The notes: generated by a model from the sequence alone, not told the origin. A stretch of DNA of 64,000 nucleotides from a virus (IMGVR_UViG_3300045988_010208), one strand, 5' to 3'; numbered from the stretch's first letter, positions 37,743-39,603 are shown. A program made the numbers and translations.

Positions 37743-37962
37743 AATGACCTCAAAGTTATATTAAATTTTGTATTACATTGAGTATAAAAATAAGCTATAA
37801 CACCTGACTTGTCAACAGATTTTATAGCTTATTTGGCAGATTTTTTATAAGGCTACTGCCATCCTTCCATACATTACCTAACCAAGCCGAACATCACACA
37901 ACCAGACCGAGCCGCACCCCGCCTTATTAAAAGACCCTCTTTAAAGGCCTTTTAAAAAGGTG

Positions 37963-37988
37963 AGTCTCATTTTAATGTAGTTGAGACT
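37963..37988. repeat. Hairpin with conserved loop ATTTTAATGTAG (copy 1; stem AGTCTC/GAGACT)
   Basis: One of three hairpins with identical loop and flanking AACTACCCA but different stems. Confidence 0.55.
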
Positions 37989-38088
37989 AACTACCCACAC
38001 CTTACCTCACCTGACCTGACCTGACCCTACCTAACATTACCGTGCCGCACCTCACTTAAAAACCTTCTTAGAAGACTCTTAAGTGATG

Positions 38089-38116
38089 TAATCGAATTTT
38101 AATGTAGCTCCGATTA
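38089..38116. repeat. Hairpin with conserved loop ATTTTAATGTAG (copy 2; stem TAATCG/CGATTA)
   Basis: Same loop and downstream AACTACCCA as copies 1 and 3, stem sequence replaced by a different complementary pair. Confidence 0.55.
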
Positions 38117-38196
38117 ACTACCCATACCTGACCAAACCTTGCCAAACCTTACCTCACCCAACTACACCGAACCTTATTAAAAGACCCTCTTAAAGA

Positions 38197-38227
38197 CCTT
38201 TTAAAAAGGAGCCTCCGAAGAGGCTGC
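38197..38227 (-). terminator. Hairpin terminator downstream of 38237..38677 (minus strand)
   Basis: GGCAGCCTC-TTCG-GAGGCTCC stem-loop followed on the minus strand by a U-tract. Confidence 0.5.
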
Positions 38228-38236
38228 CTAGTCAAC

Positions 38237-38677
38237 TTAGAAAGGTTTTCTACGTTGCTTGTTAATGTTAGCTTTCATAGCAGCTAAATGGTTTTGCTGT
38301 TCAATTAGTCGTGAACGTTCTTGATGGCTAAGTGCCATAGTGTTCACATTCTCAATTGCTTGAGTGGCTTGCTTTAAAGCTCGACCAATCTTACCAGACA
38401 TTTTACGTTTTGCAATAGTTGCTTGATGCTTAGGTTCAACCACACGATAACCAACACCCATTGAAGCAACCAGATAAATCTTCTCTTCTTTAAGAAGCTT
38501 CTCAATAAACTTCTCAAGTCGGTTTAGACGTGTAAGCGCATAAGCCTTCATTTCATCTTCGTACTTAACAATGTCACCTTGATAAGTTGGCTTCACAATA
38601 CCTAAGAAGGTGTCCATCTCAGAATGTGATACAGTGTCACCGTAACTAAACTTTGCTGCTAATGCTTTCGTATTCAT
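38237..38677 (-). CDS. Hypothetical protein (cassette gene 2)
   Basis: 146-aa ORF; flanked by composite repeats. Confidence 0.5.
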   Translation of the reverse strand: MNTKALAAKFSYGDTVSHSEMDTFLGIVKPTYQGDIVKYEDEMKAYALTRLNRLEKFIEKLLKEEKIYLVASMGVGYRVVEPKHQATIAKRKMSGKIGRALKQATQAIENVNTMALSHQERSRLIEQQNHLAAMKANINKQRRKPF

Positions 38678-38679
38678 AA

Positions 38680-39282
38680 TTAAACGTTACCTTCTGAAAT
38701 AACTTCTACAGAAAAACGACCAAAGCGTGGACGCCAATCACCTACACCACAAAGGTTACCAGCATTTTCCAGAACCATCAAGAGTTCCTCTTTGGTAATT
38801 TGCTCTTCATCGAACATCAAACCGAACTCTACAGACCAGTCACGGAAGATTGGACGGTAGCTCATAACTCGTGCTGTACCAATCTTAACAGACTTAGCAT
38901 AGATAAAGTCTGGATTCTTAGCAAGTTCTTGTGGGTTTGCTGGACAGTTCTTGATAGTCATTGGGAAGACTACATCTGTCAGCATAATGGCTCGGTCAAT
39001 TACCTTACCAAGTTTGTTGAGTTTTGCACCAGACTTGATACAAGCCTCAATCATCTCACCGTTCATAACAAAACCTAGCTGCTCATCGTAGTAACAAGAA
39101 GTTACCAGTTGACTTTCTGCTAAGAGCGCATAGTCTTCGTCAGTCTTTTTACGTTTACTGGACAGAGACTTGTGATATTTTGTCAGAGGGTTTAATGGGT
39201 CTGACAGCGTATCGTTATGGCTCAAGAAAGGACGAGTACCAGTGATTTTGACATTTAACAGTTTCATAGCATTTAGCTCCAC
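38680..39282 (-). CDS. Hypothetical protein (cassette gene 1)
   Basis: 200-aa ORF; no motif recognised. Confidence 0.5.
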
Positions 39283-39359
39283 ACTTTAGTTGATTGTTAA
39301 GTTGTTTGTAAAGAACCCTCAACAGAAGACTCTTTAGAAACTTGGTAGATTTTTAACGT

Positions 39360-39603
39360 GGCTACTACCATCCACCCATACCAGACCAGACCAGACCAAG
39401 CCAAGCCCAACACTACCGAACCGGACACGACCAGACCTTATTAAAAGACCCTGTTTAAAGACCTTTTAAAAAGGTAAGTCTCATTTTAATGTAGCTGAGA
39501 CTAACTACCCACACCAAACCATAGCATACATCGCATTACCGGACAGAACCATACTTTACCAAACATCACTTAAAAACCCTCTTAGAAGACTCTTAAGTGA
39601 TGC
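39360..39603. repeat. Composite intergenic repeat, copy R
   Basis: Same block order as copy L: GGCTACT(A/G)CCATCC, CCAGACC x3 tract, TTATTAAAAGACCCT..TTAAAG..CCTTTTAAAAAGG, hairpin, CA-rich tract, CACTTAAAAACCCTCTTAGAAGACTCTTAAGTGATG. Confidence 0.65.
39477..39502. repeat. Hairpin with conserved loop ATTTTAATGTAG (copy 3; stem AGTCTC/GAGACT)
   Basis: Identical loop and flank to copy 1. Confidence 0.55.

Follow-up and report, generated by a model that had tools for sequence, protein, structure and literature searches.

We report that the viral sequence IMGVR_UViG_3300045988_010208, of which the whole analysed stretch of 64,000 nucleotides is called the window below, carries around positions 37,743 to 39,603 what is almost certainly a complete VIPR locus, of type II and belonging to the SUSP1 clade, in a Felix O1-like phage and with guides apparently aimed at a satellite of E. 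coli. VIPR (Viral Interference Programmable Repeat) is an RNA-guided system that was first described in 2026 (bioRxiv 10.64898/2026.04.26.720920, 10.64898/2026.04.26.720927). It consists of a minimal RAMP protein, Vipr, with an RRM core, a G-loop, and a thumb; an accessory protein, Vap; and vrRNAs, each with 9-16 YNNGG repeats in which GGY is conserved and NN is hypervariable, and an invariable ~40-nt pseudoknotted 3' tail. For the SUSP1 clade a satellite phage accounted for 18 of 20 guide targets, and the experiments done with SUSP1 covered vrRNAs of ~100 nt that co-purify with Vipr, formation of the ribonucleoprotein, the biochemistry of the skip rule, and silencing. VIPR, with its non-contiguous RNA-guided recognition of DNA, has been proposed to be older than CRISPR (bioRxiv 10.64898/2026.04.26.720920, 10.64898/2026.04.26.720927). 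The locus is a member of this known system as described in 2026, from within the clade that its authors studied, and not a new kind of system. What our analysis establishes is the anatomy of the locus, the identity of its protein, the statistics of its repeats, the covariation of its tails, and the matches between its guides and their targets.

The initial annotation had noticed that two long intergenic spacers (37743-38236 and 39283-39817) carry the same ordered blocks on either side of a two-gene cassette, and all of these blocks are present at those positions. The two spacers share a 222-nt direct repeat (37867-38088 versus 39381-39602, 77% identity) within which there are five sub-copies of ~86 nt at a spacing of 122-128 nt. 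The loop ATTTTAATGTAG has exactly three copies in the window, all inside the two spacers, and the AT-rich block TTAAAAGACCCTNTTTAAAG occurs three times against 0.07 expected and likewise only in these spacers. The left copy had been described as having an extra partial repeat, and this is explained by its having three units and the right spacer two. The CA-rich, G-poor tracts are also present and are more regular than had been claimed because they follow a strict 5-nt periodicity, (A-C-C-N-N)n; the best-phase occupancy of CC at period 5 is up to 0.9 in the tracts, against a 99th percentile of 0.3 for the window, in which 0.6 is reached nowhere else. Part of the repeat is marked as 'DR_4' without interpretation in the annotation of phage wV8, the Felix O1 genome paper makes no mention of these repeats, and an Rfam scan of the window at gathering thresholds gave only a tRNA cluster and no match in these spacers.

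All the genes of the region are on the minus strand and, when read on that strand, the tracts are arrays of pentamers, (Y-N-N-G-G)×10–12. There are five such guide tracts of 10-12 repeats, which is within the published range of 9-16, with two upstream of vipr (U1 and U2) and three downstream of vap1 (D1 to D3). Every tract has a hairpin block of 17–18 bp before it and a tail made of a hairpin and a pseudoknot after it. The order on the minus strand is promoter P1, U1 and U2, vipr, vap1, a terminator, D1 to D3, and promoter P2. P1 (39660→39633) sits after the ligase gene and reads into the right element and then into both genes, and it is the predicted driver of the upstream guide array and of vipr-vap1. 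The repeats and the two-gene cassette, which had been suspected of belonging together, form one unit. Its features, all on the minus strand, are as follows.

39633..39660, minus strand: promoter P1 (TTGACA-16-TATACT), 11/12 against the sigma-70 consensus, kept in every mapped Felixounavirus locus.
39564..39602, minus strand: block B2 before U1, an AU-rich hairpin of 18 bp, minimum free energy -18.1 kcal/mol, z = -6.1.
39509..39563, minus strand: guide U1, 11 YNNGG repeats (6 with GG), 22/22 NN match to satellite L035.
39474..39508, minus strand: U1 tail, X-type, with a 4-bp pseudoknot arm GUAG, a stem, and the loop CUAC-AUUAAAA; 92% of cells paired.
39436..39474, minus strand: block B1 between the U1 tail and the U2 tract, a 17-bp hairpin, fold z = -3.0.
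39376..39435, minus strand: guide U2, 12 YNNGG repeats, best match 18/24 in eight satellites.
39344..39375, minus strand: U2 tail, S-type, GUGG..GGUAG..CCAC..CUACC, hairpin and pseudoknot; 98% of cells paired.
38680..39267, minus strand: vipr, 195 aa, predicted RAMP-fold guide-RNA-binding protein, E=1e-127 to PDB 36pp.
38237..38677, minus strand: vap1, for a Vipr accessory protein of 146 aa, 145/146 identities with the gene that follows vipr in SUSP1.
38210..38225, minus strand: intrinsic terminator stem after vap1, GC-rich and of 6 bp, CCTTTTT.
38172..38209, minus strand: block B1 5' of D1, fold computed.
38122..38171, minus strand: guide D1, 10 repeats, 19/20 NN match to satellite L038.
38088..38121, minus strand: D1 tail, X-type with the alternative stem UAAUCG/CGAUUA, a compensatory stem family.
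38050..38088, minus strand: block B2 5' of D2, fold z = -4.2.
37995..38049, minus strand: guide D2, 11 repeats, 21/22 NN match to satellite L039.
37960..37994, minus strand: D2 tail, X-type by the covariation model.
37922..37960, minus strand: block B1 5' of D3, fold z = -4.0.
37867..37921, minus strand: guide D3, 11 repeats, 19/22 NN match to satellite L039.
37835..37866, minus strand: D3 tail, S-type by the covariation model; it holds, on the plus strand, the GGCTACTGCCATCC of the initial annotation.
37787..37815, minus strand: promoter P2 (TTGACA-17-TATTTT) of the next operon, 10/12 match, marking the end of the VIPR locus.

The identity of the locus comes first of all from its proteins. 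The first gene of the cassette had been placed at 38680..39282; the gene is real and its start is most likely the ATG at 39267 and not the GTG at 39282; the ATG has a GGAG 9 nt upstream and gives a protein of 195 aa. Neither protein of the cassette has a Pfam family and in PHROGs they match only the 'unknown function' families 4652 and 5926. A profile and structure search of the two had been proposed; with phmmer against the PDB the first protein matched chain D of 36pp, named 'SUSP1 Vipr protein', the E-value being 1e-127 and the identity ~97% across all 195 residues. The G-loop is present, the residues that mutation has shown to be needed for silencing (K33, R39, K82, R138, and D177) are all at the same positions, and H17, W178, and R179 that contact GGY are likewise conserved. 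The second protein was identified by its identity with the SUSP1 gene in the same position: vap1 lies immediately downstream of vipr here as it does in SUSP1, where the gene after vipr has been named vap1 and enhances protection (bioRxiv 10.64898/2026.04.26.720920, 10.64898/2026.04.26.720927). GG tracts of period 5 likewise flank, on the coding strand, distant homologs of vipr (37-40% identity) from unrelated metagenomic viral contigs, and in one high-GC contig long (GGCNN)n arrays stand between the homologs of the two cassette genes. Thus, the tract travels with the vipr gene family and not with the replication module of Felix O1. As an observation on the side, residue 175 (38743-38745) is V, in GVGDW, both here and in the deposited SUSP1 chain of 36pp, whereas the structural preprint has a 'T175' lining the pyrimidine pocket (bioRxiv 10.64898/2026.04.26.720920, 10.64898/2026.04.26.720927).

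The tracts have the properties of guides. The window belongs to a Felix O1-like phage and its region is matched by 260 phage records, mostly with 90-95% identity; the modules of the locus were mapped across 24 related loci. The 74 distinct tracts in these 24 loci gave a plus-strand pentamer profile of A.76, C.85, and C.80 followed by two nearly uniform N positions; 496 CC-to-CC distances were exactly 5, and tract lengths changed in steps of 5 nt. In 76 parsed guides, one of which was an artefact of 2 units and was later dropped, Y was at position 1 in 98% of the units and GG was present in 79%. Between loci with ~93% identical flanks GGY is kept and NN is hypervariable, so that the tracts of such phages are nearly unalignable and yet their register is always kept. 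Our own parse of the SUSP1 locus (L019) recovered the published arrangement: one guide upstream, three downstream, and a vrRNA1 with 12 repeats. The initial annotation had supposed that a specific protein would bind the tract with the CCAGACC repeats, whose threefold run (39383-39403) lies in U2. According to the published system such a protein exists and would be Vipr, and it is the RNA of the opposite strand that would be bound.

If these tracts are guides then their NN bases should spell targets, and in four of the five they do. A target scanner was written for the published code, in which 1 nt is skipped, with a threshold of at least 80% NN match. The satellite was reached by using the SUSP1 baseplate gene, YP_009199407.1, as a probe, the satellite baseplate protein being 72% identical to it (bioRxiv 10.64898/2026.04.26.720920, 10.64898/2026.04.26.720927). 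A chromosomal homolog of the baseplate gene was found in 474 of 5,426 complete E. coli genomes (about 9%), and BLASTN of the whole left array against the same 5,426 genomes gave no match. Eight copies of the satellite, integrated at four different sites, were scanned. Each is an island of ~12 kb with recombinases, a tape-measure gene, a baseplate gene, and small genes; the phage itself has genes related to the tape-measure and baseplate genes. Four of the five guides match in the island at 86-100% of their NN positions: U1 at 22/22 (L035 7782-7813), D2 at 21/22 (L039 6926-6957), D1 at 19/20 (L038 8323-8351), and D3 at 19/22 (L039 5838-5869), and in each case none of 200 order-shuffled guides was as good. 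U1 is the only one of the five with a perfect match, which is to a satellite gene and has the predicted protospacer TTAAAGATGTCACCAAAGGAAATCATCTTTGT. The D1 site is at 80% or above in six of the eight satellites and is in the wobble phase, and the D3 site, found in three satellites, spans the start codon of a satellite gene. When the guides of all the phages were taken together, 51/75 reached at least 80% as against 2/75 shuffled guides, and 50 of the 51 best sites were inside the island, which makes up 50% of the scanned DNA. The skipped base was at codon position 3 in 32 of the 42 sites covered by open reading frames, and both strands were targeted. No guide had a self-target at 0.8 or above in its own window, the maximum being 0.77. 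The published targeting code is thereby reproduced with nothing but sequence data and independently of the authors' pipeline, and targets are assigned to this locus.

According to the published mechanism, one Vipr protomer would sit on each repeat, hiding the GGY bases and presenting the NN pairs, and these pairs would base-pair with double-stranded DNA with every third base of the target skipped. Binding to the target DNA would then silence transcription and, with four of the five guides apparently addressed to genes of the ~12-kb island, the likely role of this locus is to repress a parasite of the phage, because the island that the guides address has tape-measure and baseplate genes related to those of the phage. 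None of the eight satellites has vipr or vap1. The satellite of E. coli GN4751 has at L036 3046-3200, on the minus strand, a stand-alone vrRNA gene with 14 YNNGG repeats, a sigma-70 promoter (TTGACG-17-TATAAT), an S-type tail like those of the phages with a further compensatory stem change, and an intrinsic terminator. Since this island is without vipr, its guide presumably uses the Vipr of the helper phage, and it agrees with the report that some satellites carry vrRNAs (bioRxiv 10.64898/2026.04.26.720920, 10.64898/2026.04.26.720927).

Several points weigh against a complete and working VIPR locus aimed at the satellite. The eight satellites were taken from the top of the BLAST list and are not a random sample, and U2 had no target in them, its best match of 18/24 (L032 16297) being no better than that of shuffled guides. 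No separate promoter was found for the downstream array, which lies past the intrinsic terminator. The mechanism comes from two preprints of one laboratory, the experiments were on SUSP1, and that this particular locus is expressed and active we infer from its sequence. Finally, U1 may be weak in spite of its perfect target match because only 6 of its 11 repeats have GG (the other units include TAAAG, TTCTG, TAATG, CGATG, and TATGC) and because perturbing GGY has been reported to abolish silencing (bioRxiv 10.64898/2026.04.26.720920, 10.64898/2026.04.26.720927). A rival explanation is that the locus is VIPR by descent and is decaying or inactive in this phage, with arrays that persist only as recombinogenic repeats. 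The eroded GG motifs of U1 and the absence of a detected target for U2 would fit this, as would the loss of vipr-vap1 from many relatives, which leaves orphan guides that are mostly without targets. We consider it very improbable, however, because both genes are intact, because their products share 97-99% identity with the SUSP1 proteins that are active in experiments and have all the key residues, and because four of the five guides match current variants of the satellite at 86-100%. As the tracts diverge quickly, matches of this quality would not persist without selection. The perfect match of the GG-poor U1 may be a hint that NG repeats are tolerated by Vipr or, alternatively, that renewal of guides outpaces repair of their scaffold.

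The tails show covariation. The model with a hairpin and a pseudoknot has 92-98% of cells paired in both types of tail as against 20-47% with slid partners; for X-type tails alone the values are 92% and 20-38%, and three of their stem pairs have compensatory changes. In the X-type tails there is a double compensatory change, AGUCUCA/UGAGACU ↔ AAUCG/CGAUU, and in the S-type tails both the pseudoknot (GUGG/CCAC ↔ AAGG/CCUU) and the stem (GGUAG/CUACC ↔ GGCAG/CUGCC) covary. The independent changes are few, with two sequence families for each type of tail and one more in a satellite, and the structure agrees with the published vrRNA pseudoknot.

RNA tracts of period 5 with about 11 repeats also call to mind the TRAP sites of the Bacillus trp leader, in which there are about 11 (G/U)AG triplets with two variable bases between them and each triplet is bound by one subunit of a closed protein ring that regulates attenuation. 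The corresponding explanation here would be that a ring protein on a (GGUNN)11 tract in the 5' leader controls termination before the cassette and, besides the 5-nt periodicity of the triplets, the U5 run after each X-type tail hairpin would fit it. In TRAP sites, however, the spacers carry no information, whereas in VIPR tracts it is the spacer bases that carry it. An attenuation leader would leave unexplained the hypervariable NN bases, the arrays downstream of the genes, and the gapped matches to satellite genes, and the binding protein is a RAMP filament and not a ring. Hence we give this explanation practically no credence.

The initial annotation had itself favoured a replication origin or a partition site in which the tracts would be iterons for an initiator or a ParB-like protein and the AT-rich blocks would be an unwinding element. 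The surroundings lend themselves to it since the element with its AT-rich palindromes lies among replication genes (ligase and DNA polymerase), and a strong promoter that reads into a G-rich non-template strand is superficially like the origins that are primed by transcription. The variable dinucleotides, however, spell gapped matches to the DNA of a foreign satellite far beyond chance. The tracts are hypervariable between ~93%-identical phages, which iterons are not, and their unit is 5 nt with two free positions and not the typical 17-22 bp. A strong promoter precedes them on the strand that is transcribed, their hairpins covary as RNA structures, and the same type of tract follows vipr homologs in unrelated phages whatever the replication genes of these may be. 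The neighbouring proteins have no Rep or ParB match above any family cut-off, and the one encoded next to the tracts has the RAMP fold and is not an initiator or ParB. An origin or partition site is, therefore, very improbable. Several other candidates were also considered. There is no repeat-spacer array and there are no cas genes at the locus, where the guides are pentamer tracts, and CRISPR-Cas was accordingly set aside. Clusters of T7-type primase sites (5'-NGGTC), arrays of elemental pause sites (G-10..T-3..Y-1 G+1), priming of an origin by a two-tier G-quadruplex and R-loop, rut sites on the plus strand, and the boxA-like CTCTTTAA in block B1 all leave the hypervariable NN positions unexplained, and these alternatives were dropped because of the PDB match and the matches between guides and targets. 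A paper on aba/BstA proved to be unrelated to this locus.

The guides are separated by hairpin blocks of two sequence types, B1 and B2, which fold into hairpins of 17-18 bp with z = -3 to -6. B2 before U1 is nearly invariant across the phages. The U5 run that opens B1 comes directly after each X-type tail and after the vap1 terminator, whose U-run is the start of the B1 block of D1. A hairpin before each guide and a U-run directly after the preceding tail suggest that these blocks may have a role in the biogenesis of the guides, in their termination or in the formation or processing of their 3' ends.

The related phages show how such arrays vary. All the mapped phages have, from P1 to P2, units of ~125 nt in an array, with one to three units per side; a unit consists of a pentamer tract, one of the AT-rich blocks B1 and B2, and a hairpin whose loop is constant. 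The blocks, the loops, and the junction motifs are almost invariant. About 118 phage records have a vipr gene of at least 90% identity, about 260 have the neighbourhood, and 231 have at least part of the array. The initial annotation had called for a comparison with related phages. In this comparison all eight of the vipr-less Felixounavirus phages that were examined were found to lack both genes. What they have from P1 to P2, after the ligase gene and before the next operon, is a single array: P1 itself is kept, and so are block B2, either one tract or two, and a tail that is intact. Among them EC6 has one unit (L028 2333-2605) and BPS17S6 has two (L029 2406-2825); the others are L040-L045. 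Only one of the eight orphan guides of these phages has a satellite target as against 50 of the 72 guides of vipr-bearing phages (p=0.003). The fidelity of GG was 0.71 in the orphan guides and 0.79 in those of vipr-bearing phages, a difference that is not significant (p=0.08). Nearly the same orphan guide is shared by mio, skuden, phiWec172, and Si3, which are phages of E. coli and Salmonella. The orphan guides thus look like decay after loss of the cassette. They could be relics of array recombination, or they could be guides that borrow Vipr from a co-infecting relative, and from the record counts the orphan state could apply to about half of these phages. Also among the matching records is GenBank GU169904.1, a 147-kb 'Staphylococcus phage SA1', which contains the whole Felixounavirus region at 95% identity and is probably chimeric or contaminated.

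It had further been suggested that the flanking repeats drive excision or recombination of the cassette. A single array is the expected product of recombination between two arrays and, therefore, loss of the cassette in this way is compatible with the relatives. Recombination would be a side effect of the arrays, and the cassette may instead have been inserted. In VpaE1 (L008) the first tract of the downstream array is a hybrid of the D3 and D2 tracts of the window joined in pentamer register, which shows that by unequal recombination arrays lose whole units and chimeric guides arise. The main text of the discovery preprint, its supplements and figures lying outside the search, makes no mention of orphan guides, of the inter-guide hairpin blocks, or of a perfect-match guide with degenerate GG. 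A joint reading of the orphan vrRNA units, of the B1 and B2 blocks as biogenesis signals, and of the GG-poor U1 guide is offered tentatively, and we think it rather doubtful as a whole.

Comparison with known systems places the locus closest to the type II VIPR of SUSP1. Its vipr is 97% and its vap1 99% identical to those of SUSP1, it has the same position from the DNA ligase gene to the downstream operon, it has YNNGG guides with pseudoknotted tails, and it has the same satellite family as target. It differs in having two upstream and three downstream guides instead of one and three, in that all five guide sequences are different, and in that its host phage belongs to the genus Felixounavirus whereas SUSP1 is a Suspvirus. 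The likeness to Class 1 CRISPR-Cas, with its Cas7 RAMP filaments on crRNA, is according to the preprints that a RAMP oligomer lies along the guide with one protomer per repeat period, that a thumb flips bases at intervals, and that a variable guide is capped by a structured handle. Unlike Class 1 CRISPR-Cas, there is no repeat-spacer array and there are no cas1/cas2 or adaptation genes at the locus. The VIPR guide, moreover, is non-contiguous, using two of every five RNA bases and two of every three DNA bases, and VIPR is a viral system directed against another mobile element.

The arrangement can also be compared with that of the T4-type phages, in which promoter/stem-loop (PeSL) modules, the 'mobile regulatory cassettes' of Arbiol et al. 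2010, reportedly flank small accessory genes in a hyperplastic region, and recombination between these repeats is said to be able to delete or shuffle genes. Here too the repeats flank accessory genes and the cassette-less relatives suggest loss by recombination. The difference is that the repeats of this locus are functional guide-RNA genes, for which recombination would be a side effect. Annotated in full, the locus offers a natural example with five guides, for four of which a protospacer is predicted in an identifiable satellite of E. coli. Moreover, the series of units (3+2, 1+3, 2, and 1, with and without vipr) makes these arrays hotspots for the gain and loss of units and for deletion of the cassette, and it bears on how guides are turned over in a system for which adaptation machinery is not known.

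Some further features of the region were noted. The -35 box of P2 is enclosed by a 19-nt inverted repeat (37788-37834, 89% complementary), which is a candidate operator, perhaps for the Cro/CI-type helix-turn-helix protein encoded downstream at 36853-37182. The space from the ligase gene to P1 contains an open reading frame for a strongly hydrophobic protein of 48 aa (phrog_22006; 39668-39814, minus strand). EC6 and BPS17S6 lack this frame, and in them the stop codon of the ligase gene abuts the promoter. Directly downstream of the gene for a 909-aa family A DNA polymerase on the minus strand is a putative homing endonuclease gene of the HNH/AP2 type (42223-42738, minus strand). Finally, 25 tRNA genes are clustered at 4864-10286 on the plus strand.

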